Shown here: one piece after another, positions 27,139-47,469 of the stretch
Layout: each line of letters opens with the position of its first letter
How positions within the stretch are numbered: the first letter of the stretch is position 1
Assembly: GCF_024223415.1 (NCBI RefSeq)
Contig: NZ_CP100500.1
DNA from: Escherichia coli
GTDB taxonomy: Bacteria; Pseudomonadota; Gammaproteobacteria; Enterobacterales; Enterobacteriaceae
Reading direction: 5' to 3' (one strand)
Length of the DNA stretch: 64,000 nucleotides
Notes under the pieces: model-generated
The model's database searches: none
The model's input: only the letters and a program-made list of their open reading frames with translations
Told to the model about the DNA's origin: nothing
Program-made: the position numbers and the translations under genes

Positions 27139-27348
27139 ATGGCTATTGCCGCAAGTTACACCATGCATCTCTATTGTGATTGTCGCCAGTGTACAAATGG
27201 TAAATATCAAACGCCAGACTTCGGTGAATATATCGGTACGTCATGGACTGGCTGTGCAAAAGAGGCGCGTAAGGATGGCTGGCGAATAAGCAAAGACAAA
27301 ACTCGTGCTTTTGCGCCCGGGCATAAAGTTTTGAGGATTAACAAATGA
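27139..27348 (+). CDS. hypothetical small Cys-rich protein, possible zinc ribbon
   Basis: 69 aa with a CxCxxC ... C arrangement (C13, C15, C18, C39); start overlaps the upstream stop. Confidence 0.45.
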   Translation: MAIAASYTMHLYCDCRQCTNGKYQTPDFGEYIGTSWTGCAKEARKDGWRISKDKTRAFAPGHKVLRINK

Positions 27349-27746
27349 CCACTATAACCAAAGAGCGACTACTGACAATCAGGCAGTGGCGCGAAACATA
27401 CGGACCTGGTAGCAACGTTGTACTGCCAGCCGAAGAAGCGGAAAAACTGGCACGGATTGCTTTGGCATCGCTGGAAGCAAAACCAATAGGTGCTTTCCAC
27501 ATTGCAGAACAGCAGGTCGATGGCACAAGTGACTACATCAAGGATGGGGAGTACCGCTTGCTGACATCTGAAGAACAAAAGATAGCCCAACTTTTAGGCG
27601 ATGCATGGAACCTGTATTTTACATTGCCAGTTGAGCATCCAATGGGTAGAGATGAATTTTGCCGGGCAATTCATCATTGCCAAAATATGGTGTTGGCACG
27701 CCCTGCCATCAGGGCGCTGGCCAGTAAGGGGCAAGGCTATAAATAG
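27345..27746 (+). CDS. hypothetical protein (cargo operon)
   Basis: 133-aa ORF whose start overlaps the upstream stop (ATGA); followed by a terminator. Confidence 0.5.
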   Translation: MTTITKERLLTIRQWRETYGPGSNVVLPAEEAEKLARIALASLEAKPIGAFHIAEQQVDGTSDYIKDGEYRLLTSEEQKIAQLLGDAWNLYFTLPVEHPMGRDEFCRAIHHCQNMVLARPAIRALASKGQGYK

Positions 27747-27761
27747 ATGAGCAAAACGCCC

Positions 27762-27790
27762 TCCTCCAGGGCGTTTATTTCAATGCACAA
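27762..27790 (+). terminator. rho-independent terminator after the cargo operon
   Basis: aacgccct-cctcc-agggcgtt hairpin followed by a T-rich tract. Confidence 0.55.
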
Positions 27791-27792
27791 TA

Positions 27793-27819
27793 GTGCACAA
27801 ATTTGCACAATTTTTTTGA
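27793..27819. promoter_or_regulatory. three TGCACAA direct repeats phased at exactly 10 bp
   Basis: TGCACAA at 27793, 27803 and 27813, i.e. one helical turn apart; candidate protein-binding array. Confidence 0.4.
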
Positions 27820-28236
27820 ACGACTTTTTGCCCTTCCGGCCCGTGTGGCGTCTGGATCCGTCGGGGATCCGTGCGTGCACGAAAAAAGGCCTTTTTCTGC
27901 GCGCAGGTGACGGGGGAACAGCCCGCGTTTCAGGGGGTAAATAGCATTCCCTGAACGATGTTGCAGCGACACAACAGAATGGCTGTATTTCTCACGCTGA
28001 GCGTAAAAAAGACGTAAAAGCTTGATTTGATGGGGGTGAAAGATAAGGCCGTCAAAATCGCACTGAGGCAGCGAGAATATGTCGTCAGAGTTGCGGGGTT
28101 GCGTAAGCATCCGCCCGGCGATGATGGCTACAAGGTTGGAGATGTTGTGAAATTATCTGAAGGAATAACCAGCTTGCAGGAGAACCCGGGCAAAGTCAGA
28201 ATAGCGGCAGGCATCAACTCAAAAGAGGATAATGTC

Positions 28237-28740
28237 ATGAGCCACTTTAATGATTTATGCCAGATCAATCGTGAAGCTGAAGAAAAACGCGCTGAGGCAG
28301 CTCAAATTTTGCGGGATGAAGCGGCAAGGCTGATTGATTTCTATGAAGAATGGCTGGGGCTTCCATCCATGTACTGGGAAGACGATGATGGCGACCTGCA
28401 CCGCTACGTGGAGACAGGCTTGCCATGTAAGACAGCGGCGGATTTTAGTCCTCTTTCAGTCCACAATATCGCATCTGCACCAGACAATATTTTCCGCATG
28501 GCCGTGCGAACCTGGGTTAAGTCATCTGACAGCAGCTACCCGGTAAGCGTGGTTATTGCACTTGAATTATATTCAGTAGATGCGGAACGGGTGTCTCTGA
28601 GAGTCCGGGTGGAAGACGATATTTCTGTTCGCGTATTTATCAATAAACCCAGCGAAGAAGCCTGGGGCGATGTTGTTATGCACATGAAAAAGCACATCGC
28701 TAATCACCTGAAAAAGCGAGCGCCATCAGCACTTCGTTAA
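28237..28740 (+). CDS. hypothetical acidic protein between the cargo operon and the portal gene
   Basis: ORF 28027-28740; ATG at 28237 has the best RBS (aagagga, 7 nt spacer), giving 167 aa (MSHFNDLCQINREAEEKRAEAAQ...). In-frame alternative start at 28030. Confidence 0.5.
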   Translation: MSHFNDLCQINREAEEKRAEAAQILRDEAARLIDFYEEWLGLPSMYWEDDDGDLHRYVETGLPCKTAADFSPLSVHNIASAPDNIFRMAVRTWVKSSDSSYPVSVVIALELYSVDAERVSLRVRVEDDISVRVFINKPSEEAWGDVVMHMKKHIANHLKKRAPSALR

Positions 28741-28755
28741 GCAGAGCTGGAGAGT

Positions 28756-28780
28756 CGGGGCATAAATTTTTTATGCCCCG
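28756..28780. terminator. bidirectional terminator hairpin between the convergent hypothetical gene and Q
   Basis: cggggcataaa/tttttatgccccg palindrome with A/T tracts on both sides. Confidence 0.55.
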
Positions 28781-28806
28781 GCGAAGCAGCAGACAAGCGA
28801 AGCGCG

Positions 28807-29862
28807 TCAGGATATGGGCTGGGTGTCTAACAGTGCGTAAGGGTTAAAACGGATCACCTCTTCGCCCAGCCAGTCGTTGACGTGTTTCATTGCTTCCATG
28901 ACGGGCATCAGTTCGTTAATGGCAAACACACGGGCTGCCTTCTCCACATCCCCGAATGACCCCTTCTCACCCGGCATGGCCCCCATCAGCTGCGGCGGTA
29001 CACGGTGCACGGACAGCACATCATCACGCGATGCAGCCTTGACGTTCATGAACTCATCCTTTGCGGTGATTTGCTGAAACGGCAAAATCTGTACGCCATC
29101 CTTACCACCTCCCGCCGCGTGGATGAGCAGATTTTTAAACGCCCCGCCACCACGCGCGCTTTGCAGTGTTTCCCGCAGTTTTTCCATGCTTTCACGGTCA
29201 ACCTGCGCCGCACCGATGTAGACAATACAGCCCGCGTGTGAGCCGTTATCGTAGTAGAGCTTGCGGAAGATATCGGCGGAATGTGACAGGCTGGCAGACA
29301 GCAGGCCGCCCAGGTAATCCGGCATCCCGTAAATCTCCTGGTTGATATCAGGATTCATCAGGTGGCATATCGTCCCCTCACGAAAGCGGTACTCTTCCTG
29401 TCCTTCCTGTATATACCACCATGATTTCATATCGCTGCCACGTCGCATGTATTTCGCCAGCGCCCGGCGCAGGGCCAGCGGTTCGCCAAGCATGTTGCGC
29501 CGCAGCTCAAGACAGGCATTACCGAACACAAACCAGTCCATCGCCACCCCGGCGAACTCCTGGCGGGACAGCAGAGGATGTGGAATATAGCAGCCCAGCA
29601 GCACATTACGTTTGAAGCTGAGCGCCGACTGGTGCCAGGACGTCTGGCGGGCAGCCCGTGCCAGTCCGTACCAGTCAACGGGCGTTTCAAACCACCGCCC
29701 GTTGTCGGCGCAGTACATGCTGTCCAGCAGGTCGGCCCCTGACAGCCGGTAAGGTCCTTCAAACGTGAAGGCACTTAGTGTCGGGTCGCTTCGCAGGGAA
29801 TCCGCAAGGCTGCCCTGCGCTGCGCGGGCGTTCGTACGTCGTTGTTTATTTTTTCTGCTCAT
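28807..29862 (-). CDS. P2 gpQ-like portal protein
   Basis: 351 aa; size, position next to the terminase gene (overlapping P's stop) and conserved blocks resemble P2 Q. Confidence 0.85.
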   Translation of the reverse strand: MSRKNKQRRTNARAAQGSLADSLRSDPTLSAFTFEGPYRLSGADLLDSMYCADNGRWFETPVDWYGLARAARQTSWHQSALSFKRNVLLGCYIPHPLLSRQEFAGVAMDWFVFGNACLELRRNMLGEPLALRRALAKYMRRGSDMKSWWYIQEGQEEYRFREGTICHLMNPDINQEIYGMPDYLGGLLSASLSHSADIFRKLYYDNGSHAGCIVYIGAAQVDRESMEKLRETLQSARGGGAFKNLLIHAAGGGKDGVQILPFQQITAKDEFMNVKAASRDDVLSVHRVPPQLMGAMPGEKGSFGDVEKAARVFAINELMPVMEAMKHVNDWLGEEVIRFNPYALLDTQPIS

Positions 29863-31613
29863 CAGAACTCCGTAACACTGAAGGGGGCGGCATCATGTTC
29901 ACCGCCGACAGGTTCGTTGATAACGGCCAGCATGGTGGCCCATGCAAGATCGCCATGGCTTACGCCTCTTGCGCGATCTGTTTCGTAGGTGATAAATCCG
30001 GCCTGCGTTTTTGTTTTGCGTACCGCGTTAAAGGCGCTCACCAGTTCGCGCTCGCTGCGGTCGTACTCCCACCGCCCGGCGCGCATGAGCTGCAGCATCT
30101 TCAGAACCAGCGTGCGCTTTGATGACAGGGTGAAGGTGTAGGGAATGGCTGCCGGAAAAAAGCGCTTCACAATCTGATACACCGCATCCCCGTGACCGCC
30201 GGTTACGTCAATACCGATATGCTCAACGTTATAGCGAAAGGTGAACTCTTCAATCACCTTCGCCTGCGCCTCAAACTCCAGCCCCTGCACCCGCCGCGTC
30301 TCCACGGTGCGAAAACGCCCGCCCGGTACGGCTGGCGGCACCACCACGACAACCGCCCCGCTGTCACCGTTCCCGCTACTGCCGTTGGCGTCGTACCCAA
30401 TCCACACAGGGCGGTTCCCCATCGGACGCGGTGCAAACGGCTTCCAGTCCGGCCACTCGTCGTATCCGTCAACACCGCAGCCAATCAGGATATTCAGGTT
30501 AAATGCCGATTCCCCTTCGCGAGCAAATTCACACATGTAGAGATTGCGGAACTCGTCTTCAGTGTTATTGCGCCGGATTTTGTCAATGTTGGTTAACGTC
30601 CATCCCTGACTGACCACATCTTCCAGCGTCACAATTTGCCGCCAGATATAGTCAGGACAGATAAGGCCGTTATGAAGCGCATTCCAGCTCACATCAAAAT
30701 GCTGACGTTTATGAGTACGAAGCCCTTCATTCCAGTGATCGCCGTTCCAGTATGCATACGCCTCATGTGTTTCACTTGATGGCGTGGAAAAATAGGTACA
30801 CCGCAAACCATCCAGCGTTGCCATAGCAGCAGCCACCTTGCGCAGCTCTGCGAAACGCCCCGTCCAGAAAAACTCATCAAAATACAGATTCCCTGTGTAC
30901 GCTTGCGCGGTGGCCGCAGAAGTGCCGAGAAAATGCAGCTCTGCACCGTTGGAGAGGATGACTTTATCGCCCCCTTTCAGTTCCACATCAACTTCAGATG
31001 CAGCCTTCTGAATAATGCTTTTAAACTGGAGCGCCTGACGACGAGACGCAGACAAAAAAATCTGGTTACGCTGGTAAGGTTGTGCCACATCGTCACGCAG
31101 CGCCATCAGCAGCGCTTCCTGCGCAAAATACCAGGTCGCCCCAATCTGGCGGGATTTCAGGATCATCCTGTCAGTAATTCCGGCACGCTCACAGGCACCG
31201 ATAGCATCAAGCCATTTGCGCTGGTGTCCGGCCAGCCTGTCGGTAATTTTTTCCCGCAGCGCCGCGATCTGTTCCGGCGTGAAATGATTTTTGCGTTTTT
31301 TCGCCCGGCCTTTCTTTCCTGTTGCCGTCTCATCCGGCAGACCGTCATGCAGCTTTTTAAGCTGACGGGTCAGCAAATCAATTTCCTTAAAGTCCCCGCC
31401 TGTTTTATTCTGTTTTTCCGTGAGCTGAATGAGTCGCGCATCCATGGACTGCGTGACACGCTGAACCGGGGGCGTCTCATCCCACTGGTCGCGTTTTTTC
31501 CACGAATGGATCGTGTTCTGGTTGATACCCATAAGGCGGGAAATTTCCGCAACAGGGTAACCCTGCCAGTACAGCTGGCGTGCCCGCTGGCGAACAAATG
31601 TATCCTGAATCAT
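29862..31613 (-). CDS. P2 gpP-like terminase large (ATPase) subunit
   Basis: 583 aa; MIQDTFVRQRARQLYWQGYPVAEISRLMGINQNTIHSWKKRD... matches the P2 P N-terminus; divergent from O. Confidence 0.88.
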   Translation of the reverse strand: MIQDTFVRQRARQLYWQGYPVAEISRLMGINQNTIHSWKKRDQWDETPPVQRVTQSMDARLIQLTEKQNKTGGDFKEIDLLTRQLKKLHDGLPDETATGKKGRAKKRKNHFTPEQIAALREKITDRLAGHQRKWLDAIGACERAGITDRMILKSRQIGATWYFAQEALLMALRDDVAQPYQRNQIFLSASRRQALQFKSIIQKAASEVDVELKGGDKVILSNGAELHFLGTSAATAQAYTGNLYFDEFFWTGRFAELRKVAAAMATLDGLRCTYFSTPSSETHEAYAYWNGDHWNEGLRTHKRQHFDVSWNALHNGLICPDYIWRQIVTLEDVVSQGWTLTNIDKIRRNNTEDEFRNLYMCEFAREGESAFNLNILIGCGVDGYDEWPDWKPFAPRPMGNRPVWIGYDANGSSGNGDSGAVVVVVPPAVPGGRFRTVETRRVQGLEFEAQAKVIEEFTFRYNVEHIGIDVTGGHGDAVYQIVKRFFPAAIPYTFTLSSKRTLVLKMLQLMRAGRWEYDRSERELVSAFNAVRKTKTQAGFITYETDRARGVSHGDLAWATMLAVINEPVGGEHDAAPFSVTEF

Positions 31614-33774: not shown

Positions 33775-34551
33775 ATGCTGACACCGGCACAGGCTCATTT
33801 CCAGCACGTGATGGCTTTACGGGCAGGAACGGCAGCAGAAAACGAGGATATCGTGGCCCGCACGGCTCATGAGCAGGTCCTTCACCGTCTGCGCCTGGCA
33901 CAGCAACGCATAAAGGGCGTCCAGGCAAAAGCGGCAAAGGCCGCGCTCAAGCGTGAAATGCTGCCGGGTTTTGCAGGCTGGATAGACGGCACGCTGGAAG
34001 CCGACGGCGGACAGCAGGATGAGGTGATAGCCACACTCATGGTGTGGGCCGTGGACTGTGGCGACCTGGCGCTTGCACTGCGCATCGGGGATTATGTGGT
34101 TCGCCACAACCTCACGATGCCTGACAACTTCGGGCGTACGGCAGCCACGGTACTGACCGAGGAAATCTGCAACCCTGTTCTGACACAGGCCGGAACGGAT
34201 GCACACGCCGATTTGTCCGGCTACATCGAACCGCTGGACACCCTCTGGCAAATTGTCGCGAACCGGGACATGCCCGATGAGGTCCGCGCCAAGCTGTGCA
34301 AGGCATGCGCCTTTGCCCGTCGTGGCCTGACCGATGCCGACAGCATGGCGGTGAGTCTGAAGCTGTTCCGTGAGGCAATGCACCTTAACCCGAATGCGGG
34401 GGTAAAACGTGAGATTGCCACGCTTTCACGGGCCCTGAAAAAGGCCGGACAGGATGAAGCCGCTGCCGCACAGGAGCCTGCGGCACAGAAAGATACAACC
34501 AGAGAACAGACCACGACGCCGAAGGCGAAAGCGAAGGCGAAACGTGGTTAA
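33775..34551 (+). CDS. P2 gpM-like terminase small (endonuclease) subunit
   Basis: 258 aa in the position and size of P2 M, after N. Confidence 0.8.
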   Translation: MLTPAQAHFQHVMALRAGTAAENEDIVARTAHEQVLHRLRLAQQRIKGVQAKAAKAALKREMLPGFAGWIDGTLEADGGQQDEVIATLMVWAVDCGDLALALRIGDYVVRHNLTMPDNFGRTAATVLTEEICNPVLTQAGTDAHADLSGYIEPLDTLWQIVANRDMPDEVRAKLCKACAFARRGLTDADSMAVSLKLFREAMHLNPNAGVKREIATLSRALKKAGQDEAAAAQEPAAQKDTTREQTTTPKAKAKAKRG

Positions 34552-43644: not shown

Positions 43645-46600
43645 CTAATCTCTGTCACGGAAACTACCGACTGTCTGGCGGATACGGCGTTCCATTTCCG
43701 CACGGACGGCATCACCCACCATTTTTGCCAGTTCGCGCGGGTTTTGCGTGTGAACATCATGCAGGTGAATATGCAGTTCGCCAGTTAATCCCCATGGTGC
43801 CGCCTCACTCTGGCGCGGTCGGGGCGATGCGGGGGATATGGGCTGGCGCACAGCCTCAACCACCGGACGGGATGTTGCCGCCATCACTGGTGTCATTAGC
43901 GGGGAGAACGTCGGCATGACATCGTGAGTCATAACCGGTTTGATCACCGGCGGAACCACTGGCGTAATATTACCGGACAGTACCGGACGGACGACCGGAG
44001 GAATAACCGGCACATTATTCACGGACACCACCGGCTTCACGACCGGCGACACGTTCGCCGTGGTGGATATCAGCGGCGAAACACTGACAGGCGGTGGCGC
44101 TGGCAGCGGTGGCAACGAAGGCACACTGACCGACGGCACCTGCGGCAGTCTGACAGGTGGCTCACTGACACTACCCGGTAACAGGGAAGCTGCGCGGTTA
44201 AAGCGTTCCTCCTTCCACTCACCACGAACGGCCAGCGCTTCCGGCAGGTTTTTAAAGATAATATCGCCGGGACCAGCGCGTTTTTTCGCCTGTTTCGCCT
44301 CATCCAGCAGACCACCGGTGTTATCGACGATTTTGTTCAGGCGGCGCATAGTGCCGGTATTCTCCCCCGTCAGGGGTGGTTGCCCCCCTTTGGGTTTTTC
44401 GCCGTATTTTTTATCCTCGTCCTTTTTCGGCGGATTAATGACGTTAACATCCGCCAGAAGCATGGCAGCTTTCTCGTTCAGCAACTCCTTCTGTTTTAGT
44501 TCTTCCGCTTTTTTCCGGGCGCGCTCAACCGCTGACGGAATCAGCCCGAGTTTTTCCAGCACCCGGGTTAATGAGTCAATCAGCAGCGTAACCGGACCGG
44601 TCACCAGATTGCTGATAAACTCCCCGACCTTCTGCCCGAACGTCCGCCCGGCTTCCGTGCACTTGTCCAGCTCATCCTTTGTTGTGCTTACCGGCGCGAA
44701 CAAATCCACGAACCACTGCCACACACGCCCGATTGTCTGCCCGACATACTCAAACAATGGTCCCAGTGGTGCCACAGCCTCGCGCAGTGGCGTAAGCCCC
44801 TGCCACAGGCCGGACAAGAACCCGCCCACGACAGCCTTCAGCTGGTCCCAGTGCCGCCAGATAAGCACTGCCGCACCGACCAGTGTCGCCACCACAAGGC
44901 CCACCGGACTTAACAGAAAACCCAGCGCCCCGCCAAGTGCGCCCACCGCACCACTCACCATCCCCCACAGTGCGGGCAGACCTGACAGTCTGAGCGCCAG
45001 TATTCCGATACCGCGCCCCAGTGAAATCAGTGCGCCGCCAGGTGAAGTGAACGCAGCCAGCAGACCACCACGCAGCGCGCCAAGTCCCGCCTGCACACCA
45101 CGAAGCCGCCCCGCAACTACGCCCAGCAGTGCAGCAAACCGTCCGGCACCGGAGGTGATACCGACAAACAGCACGCGCCAGCCACCGATACCGCCCAGCG
45201 GACCACCGAGTACGCCGCGCAGCTGCGTCAGTAACGGCAGCGCACGACCGAGGCCGGATGTGCCGGTCAGCAGGGCAAACCCAAGACGCAGTTTTGCCAG
45301 CGGCCCCATCAACACACCAGTGGCAAGTGACAGCGCCCCCATGGCCGCAACCGCAGCCAGCAGTACACCACCGGCAATCAGCAGTTGTTTTGTCAGTTCA
45401 GGGTGCGCCTGAGCCAGCGCGGTGACTTTCGCAATAACCCGGGTGAACGACTGCGTGACAGAACGCAGCGGCCCGTCAACGAGGTCAGCGATACGGATAC
45501 GCAGTCCTTCCCATGCGCTGTTCAGTGATTTCAGGTCACCGTCCAGGTTATCAACCATAACACGGGCAGTCTGATTAAGTTCCCCGGTGGCCAGTTCAAT
45601 CTCCTGCGTAAGACGGGGAAGATTATTTTCCCCCGCCGCAGTGACAAGATTCATCAGGGAAACATAGGACTCCTGCCCGGCAATAGCCCTGAAAAAGGAG
45701 ACCTGCGCGGCATTACCGTATTTTCGGGTGGCCTGGTACAGCTCATTCAGGATATTTTCCATCCGGCGCATGTTCCCGTAAGCATCCTGCGTCTCCACGC
45801 CAAGCTCTTTCAGTGCCATTGCAGCGGCCTTCGGCGGATCAACCAGACGTGACAGACTGGCACGCAGCGCCGTACCTGCATCACTTCCACGGATCCCCAC
45901 ACTGCCAAGGACACCCGTCATGGCTGCCGCCTGTTCAAGGGACAGGCCAAGTGAAGCTGCAACCGGCCCCGTGTACTTCATGGTTTCACCCAGCGAACGG
46001 AGATCCGTATTGGTTCGTGTGAAGGTGGCGGCCAGCGTGTCACCCACGCGATCCATCTGGTCAGCGGACAGACCAAACTGTGTGAGGATATTCGAACTGA
46101 TATCGGCAGTCTGTCCCAGGTCCATCCCTGCAGCCATTGCCAGATCAAGCACGCCGGGTAGCGCCGCCTGTATGGCCTGTGGTGTGAAGCTGGCCATGGC
46201 AAGGAACGCCTGACCGCTGGCAGCATCACCGGCGGTAAACTGCGTTTCAGAGCCCAGCTTAATGGCCTGTTCGCGCAGCGCCTTAAACTGCGGACTGTTT
46301 TTGTCAATACGGGTCAGCGCCTGGACGCGCGACATCTCCTTACCAAAACTGACCGCCGGTTGCAGGAAACGTCCGGCCGCATAGCCGCCTGCCGCCGCCG
46401 TACCAACCGCCGTAAGTCCGACCGTTTTAAGTTTTCCCGCCGTCTCCTGAGCACGGGAATATTGCTGGCGTGCCTGCGTGACACGTGCCAGCGCCTGCCG
46501 TTCGCGTTCCAGCTGGTCGTTGTATTGCTGTGTTCGCCGTATGGCCTGTTGAATGGTGTTGTCACTGCCGGAAAGCGCAATACCGTGGCGCCGCAGCTCA

Positions 46601-46956
46601 CCACCCAGTTCGCGCATTCGCTGAACTTCACGCGCACGGACCTCATTGAGACGCTCAAGTTTGAGGCTCAAATCGTTCATCAGCTTTTTCTGTTTGTCAG
46701 ACAGCACGGTTCCGGCGCGCTGAATTTGCTGAAGTGCGCTTAACTGGCGTTGCGCCCTGACAATGCCGTTTCCGGCCTTGTTTGCAGCCTCGCGGGCGCG
46801 ATCAAATGAACGGGCGTGGCGTTCCAGGTTTTTGATCGCACCCTGCGTTCTCTGTATGGAGTCGCCAAGCTGGCCCATCATGCGACGGGCGTTTTCGGTG
46901 GGACGGGTCAGCCTGTCAACAGCGCTGAAGGCGACCCGTATATCAAGCGTTTTCAT
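43645..46956 (-). CDS. tail tape measure protein (P2 gpT-like)
   Basis: ORF 43645-46992; ATG at 46956 (MKTLDIRVAF...) overlaps the predicted E' stop, giving ~1103 aa. Long helical N-terminus and Gly/Ala-rich membrane-like core typical of tape measure proteins. Confidence 0.85.
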   Translation of the reverse strand: MKTLDIRVAFSAVDRLTRPTENARRMMGQLGDSIQRTQGAIKNLERHARSFDRAREAANKAGNGIVRAQRQLSALQQIQRAGTVLSDKQKKLMNDLSLKLERLNEVRAREVQRMRELGGELRRHGIALSGSDNTIQQAIRRTQQYNDQLERERQALARVTQARQQYSRAQETAGKLKTVGLTAVGTAAAGGYAAGRFLQPAVSFGKEMSRVQALTRIDKNSPQFKALREQAIKLGSETQFTAGDAASGQAFLAMASFTPQAIQAALPGVLDLAMAAGMDLGQTADISSNILTQFGLSADQMDRVGDTLAATFTRTNTDLRSLGETMKYTGPVAASLGLSLEQAAAMTGVLGSVGIRGSDAGTALRASLSRLVDPPKAAAMALKELGVETQDAYGNMRRMENILNELYQATRKYGNAAQVSFFRAIAGQESYVSLMNLVTAAGENNLPRLTQEIELATGELNQTARVMVDNLDGDLKSLNSAWEGLRIRIADLVDGPLRSVTQSFTRVIAKVTALAQAHPELTKQLLIAGGVLLAAVAAMGALSLATGVLMGPLAKLRLGFALLTGTSGLGRALPLLTQLRGVLGGPLGGIGGWRVLFVGITSGAGRFAALLGVVAGRLRGVQAGLGALRGGLLAAFTSPGGALISLGRGIGILALRLSGLPALWGMVSGAVGALGGALGFLLSPVGLVVATLVGAAVLIWRHWDQLKAVVGGFLSGLWQGLTPLREAVAPLGPLFEYVGQTIGRVWQWFVDLFAPVSTTKDELDKCTEAGRTFGQKVGEFISNLVTGPVTLLIDSLTRVLEKLGLIPSAVERARKKAEELKQKELLNEKAAMLLADVNVINPPKKDEDKKYGEKPKGGQPPLTGENTGTMRRLNKIVDNTGGLLDEAKQAKKRAGPGDIIFKNLPEALAVRGEWKEERFNRAASLLPGSVSEPPVRLPQVPSVSVPSLPPLPAPPPVSVSPLISTTANVSPVVKPVVSVNNVPVIPPVVRPVLSGNITPVVPPVIKPVMTHDVMPTFSPLMTPVMAATSRPVVEAVRQPISPASPRPRQSEAAPWGLTGELHIHLHDVHTQNPRELAKMVGDAVRAEMERRIRQTVGSFRDRD

Positions 46957-47469
46957 GCTCTGCGTTCCCGCTGCGAAGGGCCGCCCGCTCACGCCAGGCG
47001 ACCACCTCGCCGGGATCCATCAGGAAGATTTCAGCGGGAGACCAGTTGAAAATAACGGCGATATCCGCCACAAAGTCTTCAATGTGCTCAAAGGGCACGA
47101 CGGTTATCAGCCTGCCGTCGCCGCCCCGCTCTTCCCGCCAGAGTCCTGACCGGCCAAAAAATTAACCGCCACCCCGCACAGCTGAATAAAATCAGCGGAC
47201 CCCATGCGCTTAAGCAGAACCTCGTCCAGTCGCGGCGAAGTGACGCGCGGGAGTAACTCAAACATCGCGTCCGTTTTCATGTTCAGCACGTCAAGCAGTG
47301 ACAGCCCGCGCAGTGAACCGGCCTGCTGTACAGCAGGCGTGATTTCCACATACGTGATTTTTTTGTTACCGAGCACAAGGGGCGTTTTCAGCGTCACGCC
47401 GCGCTCACTGGTCACGTCCGCCGCATCAGCACCGTCAGTAACAGGGGCAACAACCGGATTTTCTTTCAT
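46952..47469 (-). CDS. tail assembly chaperone E (47107-47469) and its -1 frameshift extension E+E' (to 46952)
   Basis: 120-aa E ORF ends at 47107. A TTTTTTG slippery heptamer (minus strand, 47155-47161) lies near its 3' end; after a -1 shift the frame runs to a TGA at 46952-46954 that overlaps the T start codon. Confidence 0.7.

Follow-up and report, generated by a model that had tools for sequence, protein, structure and literature searches.

A predicted cos site between the cargo genes and the portal gene of a P88-like prophage in Escherichia coli

The prophage and the interval between cargo and portal genes

The window, that is the whole 64-kb stretch of E. coli DNA analysed here, contains a P88-like prophage of the P2 family (Peduoviridae), integrated between rraA and zapB. 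Its nearest named relatives are phage P88 and other Xuanwuvirus and Gemsvirus phages. The prophage genes run in the order integrase, repressor, Cox, replication endonuclease A and five small cargo ORFs, up to the interval under study (27750-28236). Past this interval come the portal gene Q and the large terminase gene P, both on the minus strand, then the scaffold and capsid genes, gpM, the tail genes and ogr.

Genes for all three packaging proteins are present in the element that carries the candidate cos site described below, with the terminase genes 1-6 kb away from it. The portal protein (gpQ homologue, 28807-29862, minus strand) is 45% identical to P2 gpQ, the terminase large subunit (gpP homologue, 29862-31613, minus strand) is 46% identical to P2 gpP and the terminase small subunit (gpM homologue, annotated as such, 33775-34551, plus strand) is 36% identical to P2 gpM. 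Identities of 36-46% are in line with a cos site that has diverged from that of P2. The small subunit is the presumed reader of the sequence boxes discussed in the next section. Elsewhere in the structural genes, the tape-measure ORF of the window is unbroken over 1115 codons. For a strain whose cos-Q region is identical over 1.2 kb, however, this gene carries a pseudogene label in RefSeq, and the prophage could for that reason be defective.

The interval is bounded on one side by variable cargo, downstream of gene A, and on the other by a terminator and the leftward gene Q. In P2, 186 and PSP3, the same slot holds the annotated cohesive ends, just beyond the terminator that follows Q, and both a P2-like hotspot and cos have been located between gpA and gpQ (Rousset et al., 2022, PMC9122126).

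An earlier sequence-only reading had described this interval as an unusually long, structured non-coding gap containing three TGCACAA repeats, a double palindrome, a 14-bp palindrome, a hairpin with a 7-bp stem and a cos-like motif at 27906-27924. Each of these motifs is found where that reading placed it. The description of the gap as non-coding holds with one qualification, namely that a 236-amino acid RefSeq coding sequence starting at 28030 overlaps it. We rejected this call in favour of a 167-amino acid ORF (28237-28740, plus strand), since the family profile (phrog_5091, function not known) begins at Met 28237. The ORF is preceded by the ribosome-binding site AAGAGGA, and its product matched no Pfam family and no PADLOC defence model.

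The interval can be divided into four parts. The leftmost part, 27750-27783, terminates the cargo operon and lies outside cos: directly after the stop of the ORF at 27345-27746, a rho-independent-type hairpin on the plus strand (AAACGCCCT / AGGGCGTTT with a T-rich tail, 27754-27781) contains a 9-bp perfect inverted repeat (27754-27776). It is followed by a module of about 165 bp (27784-27948), about a third of the 480-bp gap, to which we return below.

The third part is a leader (27949-28160, plus strand) conserved only among E. coli P88-like phages, within which its column variability is 0.00-0.15; homology to P88 ends at 28160. A 42-codon frame within the leader (equivalent to 28036-28161; relatives have a GTG at 28036) is open in the majority of relatives and cut to 23 codons in six loci. 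It was rejected as a gene, as variability by codon position (0.049, 0.066 and 0.045) showed no third-position excess. A patch of about 90 bp at 27925-28012 has a counterpart with 74.5% identity in a non-essential part of the lambdoid phage 434, where it lies outside a cos context. A small minus-strand protein common to both was considered and rejected because the frames are not conserved; the likeness is at the DNA level only.

The fourth part, 28161-28236, is the 5' untranslated portion of an inserted cassette of about 584 bp (28161-28744, plus strand), which lies between cos and the Q terminator, holds the 167-amino acid ORF and is absent from P88. Indeed P88, 500465-2 and others join 28160 straight to approximately 28745. 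The version of the cassette seen here is rare: of about 1150 E. coli genomes with a match, no more than 28 cover at least 80% of the query, and other loci carry a divergent 174-amino acid allele at the same spot. To the right of the cassette, the hairpin CGGGGCATAAATTTTTTATGCCCCG (28756-28780) is a two-way terminator for both the P-Q operon and the moron. The hairpin is conserved beside Q in P88, and its P2 equivalent is tQ, which is annotated at 160-181 and immediately precedes Q. Insertions are known to occur in P2-like phages in the interval from cos to Q, and those documented between cosL and the portal gene include ctx in phiCTX and ORF1-4 in phiRSY1. The earlier proposal that the 167-amino acid ORF sits between cos and Q, where P2 has no such gene, is borne out and has precedent.

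Phased boxes and the predicted cohesive end

The outer edge of the 27784-27948 module is formed by three YGCACAA boxes in 10-bp phase (starting at 27784, 27794 and 27804 and spanning 27784-27810, plus strand), a putative array for the terminase small subunit. The TGCACAA triplet pattern has a single match in the window and none in 100 shuffles. The motif itself is otherwise scarce, with six copies in the window against 15.3 expected, and three of the six are in this array. Box 3 is followed by a conserved T7 tract and GA (27811-27819, plus strand), the 'caattt-ttttga' columns being at least 80% conserved in an alignment of 65 sequences. A fourth box, TGCAC followed by an A-run (27876-27887, plus strand), is near-invariant in 64 relatives.

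To place these boxes against known sites, we read the right ends of P2, 186, P4, PSP3 and phiCTX from their records and measured how far each TGCA-core box lies from the cut, as annotated or published. The fixed-offset criterion that results is a product of this analysis and draws on records in which cohesive ends are annotated or cleavage sites have been published. With the cut of the window set at 27905/27906, its boxes lie at -122, -112, -102 and -30. The corresponding positions are -123, -111, -101 and -29 in P2, -124, -111, -101 and -29 in both 186 and P4, and -120, -111, -101 and -29 in PSP3; the TGCAG series of phiCTX has TGCAGAAAAA as its last member, at -28. The offsets of the window agree with the mapped cos sites of P2, 186, P4 and PSP3 to within 1-2 nt, and the gap between the third and fourth boxes is 72 bp in these four and in the window alike.

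The fourth box also connects the module to what is known of the classical site. According to papers citing Ziermann and Calendar (1990), the cos sites of P2, 186, PSP3 and P4 have 19-nt 5' cohesive ends within a conserved core of 55 bp. The fourth box corresponds to TGCATTAAAACC, which opens this P2/P4 core at -29; given that 29 + 19 + 7 = 55, the box at -29 starts the published 55-bp core. Compared ungapped from -29 to +26, the window matches P2 at 27 of 55 positions, whereas 186, P4 and PSP3 match P2 at 48-52 of 55. What the window keeps from the core is the TGCA and A-run at its start and the GCA/GG junction, where the slash marks the cut. The left flank of the predicted top-strand cut is CTGCGCGCA (27897-27905), giving GCA/GG, and 186 and PSP3 have GGGCA/GG. 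The columns 27897-27905 were forced by the pattern used for the IMG/VR search described below, and their conservation in the resulting loci is not independent evidence.

Several further motifs lie between or beside these landmarks. Two copies of GGATCCGT, 11 bp apart (27854 and 27865; 27854-27872, plus strand), are the form taken in the E. coli P88 group by a semi-conserved spacer block that reads GGTCTGA...GGATC in other clades and in P4, as judged from the alignment and the right end of P4. The 14-bp palindrome AAAAAGGCCTTTTT (27883-27896) occupies a variable spacer between box 4 and the cut. Its sequence is not conserved in relatives, many of which still have some dyad there; the equivalent position in P2, 186 and P4 is occupied by a short hairpin. 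Immediately to the right of the predicted cohesive end, a hairpin with a 7-bp stem (TTCAGGG/CCCTGAA, 27929-27935/27949-27955; 27929-27955 overall, plus strand) falls within the patch common to phage 434, and its right arm is missing in one of the satellites described below (L027). The single-stranded DNA fold of 27780-27960 is better than that of shuffled sequences (z = -2.9).

The sequence-only reading had started from the likeness of 27906-27924, where ggtgacgggggaacagccc is present, to the cohesive ends of P2 and 186. The ends given there agree with the records (GGCGAGGCGGGGAAAGCAC and GGCGTGGCGGGGAAAGCAT, respectively). The likeness itself amounts to 13 of 19 positions identical to the P2 end, which is at chance level given that 13 other 19-mers in the window score 13 and two score 14; too weak as a basis when taken alone, the 19-mer served as a lead only, and it is the architecture around it that carries the support.

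Box geometry places a predicted 19-nt 5' cohesive end, GGTGACGGGGGAACAGCCC, at 27906-27924 on the plus strand, to within about 2 nt. Over its first 12 nt it is similar to the cohesive end of phiRSA1, GGTGAGGCGGGG, and the family consensus GGYGWGGCGGGG... (from P2, 186, phiCTX, Smp131 and phiRSA1) is approximated by GGTGACGGGGGA. In P2, 186 and phiCTX, a TGCGCGC element is found on the right of the overhang; in the window, it lies to the left of the predicted one. With GCGCGC on the side opposite to that in P2, the predicted cut could be off by a few nucleotides.

Sequence databases were also searched for molecules ending at the site. BLAST of the core and of a Klebsiella variant against 50,697 phage records returned no record with its ends there, and two scans of IMG/VR returned no contig starting with GGTGACG or ending with AGCCC. 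Where contigs do break near the module, repeat-induced assembly breaks are a likelier cause than true ends, and a look-up of contigs that encode the exact portal protein gave chromosomal assemblies only. The record LR595891 starts 77 nt before the predicted cut; we rejected this start as a true end, because its authors set nucleotide 1 by reference genomes. Literature searches on the 19-mer, the accession and a P88 cos returned nothing relevant and no mapped ends for this lineage.

Conservation of the module and its presence in P4-like satellites

When IMG/VR was scanned with GCGCAGGTGACGGGGG, about 110 genuine loci were recovered, along with a few chance matches. The 16 bases of the search pattern are conserved in these loci by construction and carry no weight as evidence. 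The spacing of the boxes is highly regular: the 10 + 10 bp phase is found in all 64 non-redundant IMG/VR relatives, the gap between boxes 3 and 4 is 72 bp in 51 of the 64 (range 68-72) and in 59 of the 64 the cut lies 31 nt from box 4. In most IMG/VR loci, the portal gene lies 205-340 bp downstream of the module.

The limits of the module are equally well defined. Sequence to the left of box 1 is unrelated between loci and conservation starts exactly at 27784, which is also where the BLAST matches of phages and E. coli genomes begin whenever the cargo differs. Distant phages align from 27774/27784 to 27927/27939, and phage phiT5282H to 27777-27927. The stretch 27784-27948 is the only part of the interval conserved beyond close relatives and is common to distant P2-like phages and to satellites of the P4 type. 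Among 5426 complete E. coli genomes, about 1150 match, or about a fifth.

At four loci (L027, L073, L123 and L139), the module is present and no portal gene lies beside it. These loci are P4-like satellites, with proteins similar to P4 int (52%), alpha (34%), cI (52%) and delta (31%), and also a toprim primase. The homology of these satellites to the window is restricted to 27784-27948; L027, for one, aligns there and nowhere else, with 81.8% identity over 170 nt. The same satellite element is found in E. coli ETEC4067, adjoining a tRNA-Arg gene, where it contains an Icd-like gene, a toprim primase, an ogr/Delta-like gene and a MazEF pair. For P2 and P4 themselves, cos is the sole common region (Rousset et al., 2022, PMC9122126). 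Such sharing is the strongest indirect argument that the module of about 165 bp is a packaging signal and suggests that both of its edges matter.

Assignment as a cos site, alternative explanations and significance

Taken together, synteny, box geometry, conservation in about 100 related loci and the presence of the module in P4-like satellites lead us to assign 27784-27948, with a probability of roughly 85%, as the cos site of this P88-like, P2-family prophage. The same evidence supports the earlier suggestion of a packaging region with a cohesive end at 27906-27924.

By the precedent of P2 and P4, whose terminase cuts circular monomers, its preferred substrate, at cos to give 19-nt 5' ends, we propose the following sequence of events. 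After excision and replication of the prophage as circles, terminase (gpM and gpP) would recognise the module and introduce two staggered nicks, leaving the overhang of about 19 nt described above; the linear genome would then be threaded through the portal gpQ. The recognition elements would be the three YGCACAA boxes and the fourth TGCAC/A-run box 72 bp further on, and judging from geometry and conservation they are probably those of gpM. Lying roughly on one face of the helix, the boxes may position the enzyme at a cut 30 nt past the fourth box.

The predicted site resembles the cos sites of P2, 186, PSP3 and P4 in several respects. It lies between a cargo (TO-type) region and Q and has a predicted G-rich overhang of about 19 nt that starts with GGYG. 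A TGCA and A-rich box precedes the cut by 29-30 nt, with a short dyad between box and cut, three TGCA-core boxes are found approximately 100-124 nt before the cut, the last two of them 10 bp apart, and the site is common to P4-type satellites. It differs from P2, 186 and P4 in having TGCACAA rather than TGCAT boxes and a strict spacing of 10 + 10 bp rather than 12-13 + 10 bp, and from the P2/186/PSP3/P4 group in the conserved T7 tract after box 3. Unlike the mapped ends of P2-type phages, the cut in the window is a prediction from sequence.

Comparisons can be extended to less similar systems. In phiCTX, repeat families (R4-R6) also flank cos and the converting gene ctx is found between cosL and the portal homologue, as is the 167-amino acid ORF here; phiCTX differs in its 21-nt overhang, in the sequence and spacing of its boxes, in the attP that adjoins its cos and in that its inserted gene is a known toxin. 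As in the cos-adjacent hotspots of P2 and P4 (Rousset et al., 2022, PMC9122126), the cargo stops at the left edge of the module, at 27784. Unlike that hotspot, which extends from gpA to cos, the insertion described here is on the cos-Q side and its product has no PADLOC defence match.

A similar outline, by analogy only and with no sequence relationship, is seen in lambda. The lambda cos (cosQ-cosN-cosB) has R sites bound by the small terminase gpNu1 and a 12-nt overhang, and its nicking site is flanked by a repeat array and a bendable tract.

Among alternative explanations, the one that survives best, which we nevertheless consider unlikely, is that the interval is mainly a regulatory or non-coding RNA region for the 167-amino acid gene, containing a promoter, operator repeats, a structured leader or a small RNA. 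A long untranslated stretch does precede the ORF, the leader at 27949-28160 is well conserved in the E. coli P88-like group with its function unexplained, and the patch at 27925-28012 recurs in phage 434 outside any cos. However, the repeats and the G-rich core are found in P88 and in about 1100 E. coli genomes that do not have the ORF, the ORF came on its own 584-bp cassette downstream of 28160, and the satellites keep the module without the 167-amino acid gene. The RNA structure prediction and Rfam scan proposed by the sequence-only reading, which had raised this possibility, lend it no support. Rfam has no match inside 27750-28236 and only a sub-threshold gyrA match at the 28748-28801 terminator, RNA folds of 27925-28165 are not significantly better than those of shuffled sequences (z = -1.6 and -1.7) and a promoter scan of the interval found no sigma-70-like match on the plus strand.

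We regard it as very improbable that the TGCACAA repeats are iterons, whether a parC-like partition centromere or the repeats of a replication origin, that act for plasmid-type genes nearby. Centromeres of this kind typically have short direct repeats in phase, and immediately upstream P88 and some relatives have genes for partition-like proteins (the annotations read plasmid partition or chromosome partitioning). Yet the window has no partition gene between A and the repeats, 186 annotates tum and orf97 and no partition genes upstream of its cos, and the repeats persist next to wholly different upstream cargo and in satellites. An iteron array is also hard to reconcile with the fixed distance between the repeats and the G-rich core, and with TGCAT boxes at equivalent offsets from the mapped cuts of P2, 186, P4 and PSP3.

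Least probable of all, to the point that we give it hardly any credence, is that cos lies elsewhere, for example by Q at 28741-28806 as the sequence-only reading had allowed, and that 27784-27948 is an unrelated conserved element: the distance from the cohesive end to the Q stop is indeed 187 bp in P2 against a predicted 900 bp here (326 bp in P88), but the larger distance is due to the 584-bp insertion, the 28741-28806 segment consists of a GC-stem/T-run hairpin, the counterpart of P2 tQ, and the approach to the Q stop, with no G-rich 19-mer and no boxes, and the satellites share 27784-27948 and not 28741-28806.

Returning to the cos assignment, the box geometry suggests a broader and more tentative reading, to which we give somewhat less than even odds: the four phased YGCA boxes may serve the small terminase subunit across the whole family as a recognition array that extends the functional cos well beyond the 55-bp core, with the box sequence setting the pairing of helper and satellite. 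In one report, P2 cosmid transduction rose 10^3-10^4-fold with longer P2/P4 cos flanks, an effect that is consistent with a contribution from sequences beyond the 55-bp core without identifying them. A literature search for binding or mutational data on gpM at the boxes found none for any P2-like phage. If this reading is true, the TGCAT boxes of P2, 186 and P4, the TGCACAA boxes of the P88 group and the TGCAG boxes of phiCTX would decide which helper packages which satellite.

A cos site is an ordinary and expected feature of a P2-family prophage, and current understanding is not overturned by this assignment. Its location would fix the ends of the virion genome for a lineage, carried by roughly one in five complete E. 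coli genomes, in which variable genes are inserted on both sides of cos. The analysis also identifies satellites that P88-like phages, rather than P2, probably mobilise. Finally, the box geometry provides a concrete model of how P2-type terminases may find their site, and could guide the design of cosmids.

Dam sites and the right flank of the predicted cohesive end

Inside the cos module (window 27784-27948), two GGATCC sites, each containing a Dam site (GATC), are found 11 bp apart at 27854-27870. Other clades carry a single GGATC at the equivalent position, and P2 has none in the part of its right end that was read. Directly to the right of the predicted cohesive end (27906-27924), a patch of about 90 bp (27925-28012) has 74.5% identity (E = 3e-4) to the lambdoid phages 434 and 2B8, in which the corresponding segment is a non-essential region. 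Because reading frames are not conserved across this patch, the resemblance is one of DNA sequence.

Gene models around the cos module

RefSeq annotates a 236-aa CDS (WP_223942718.1) at 28030-28740, which reaches 207 nt into the interval that the sequence-only reading had treated as non-coding. The N-terminal extension of this gene model is probably an annotation artefact, since the phrog_5091 family profile begins at an internal methionine (28237) that is preceded by a good ribosome-binding site, corresponding to a protein of 167 aa. In one E. coli genome (GCA_014863425.1), an IS21-family element (IstA/IstB) lies within this 167-aa ORF, at a position equivalent to about 28250-28370 of the window, and consequently the distance from cos to the portal gene exceeds 2.5 kb.

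On the other side of the cos module, the final cargo ORF (27345-27746, 133 aa) precedes a terminator; the only RefSeq annotation for it is a truncated pseudogene fragment (window-equivalent 27345-27479). E. coli strain SCU-115 is identical to the window over the 1.2-kb stretch from cos to Q, and its tape-measure gene is labelled in RefSeq as an incomplete pseudogene. The tape-measure ORF of the window (43645-46992, minus strand) is unbroken over 1115 codons and is longer than the P2 tape-measure protein.

Atypical cos modules in related loci

Two loci from IMG/VR carry atypical forms of the cos module. In the first (L112), the A-run of box 4 (TGCAC followed by A residues) is fused straight to the second TGCACAA box with a loss of about 80 bp, and the adjoining portal gene has only 30% identity to that of the window. 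Recombination between boxes may have produced this arrangement, or the site may be degenerate. The second (L080) contains two copies of the cos motif 292 bp apart; the downstream module is complete, and the upstream copy is truncated, its homology ending 13 nt into the predicted overhang. The truncated copy looks like a recombination joint within the predicted cohesive-end sequence.

P88-type cos modules in P4-like satellites

A P88-type cos module is also present in three P4-like satellites, two from IMG/VR (L027 and L073) and one from E. coli ETEC4067 (L139, 9001-13300; NZ_CP122685.1, about 1548-1560 kb). The genes of these satellites include one for a P2-family major capsid homologue of their own, with about 33% identity to the capsid protein of the window, together with one for a Sid/Psu-like protein of 236 aa, an ogr/Delta-like gene and a MazEF pair. 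At least 80% of the query is covered by similar sequence in 55 complete E. coli genomes.
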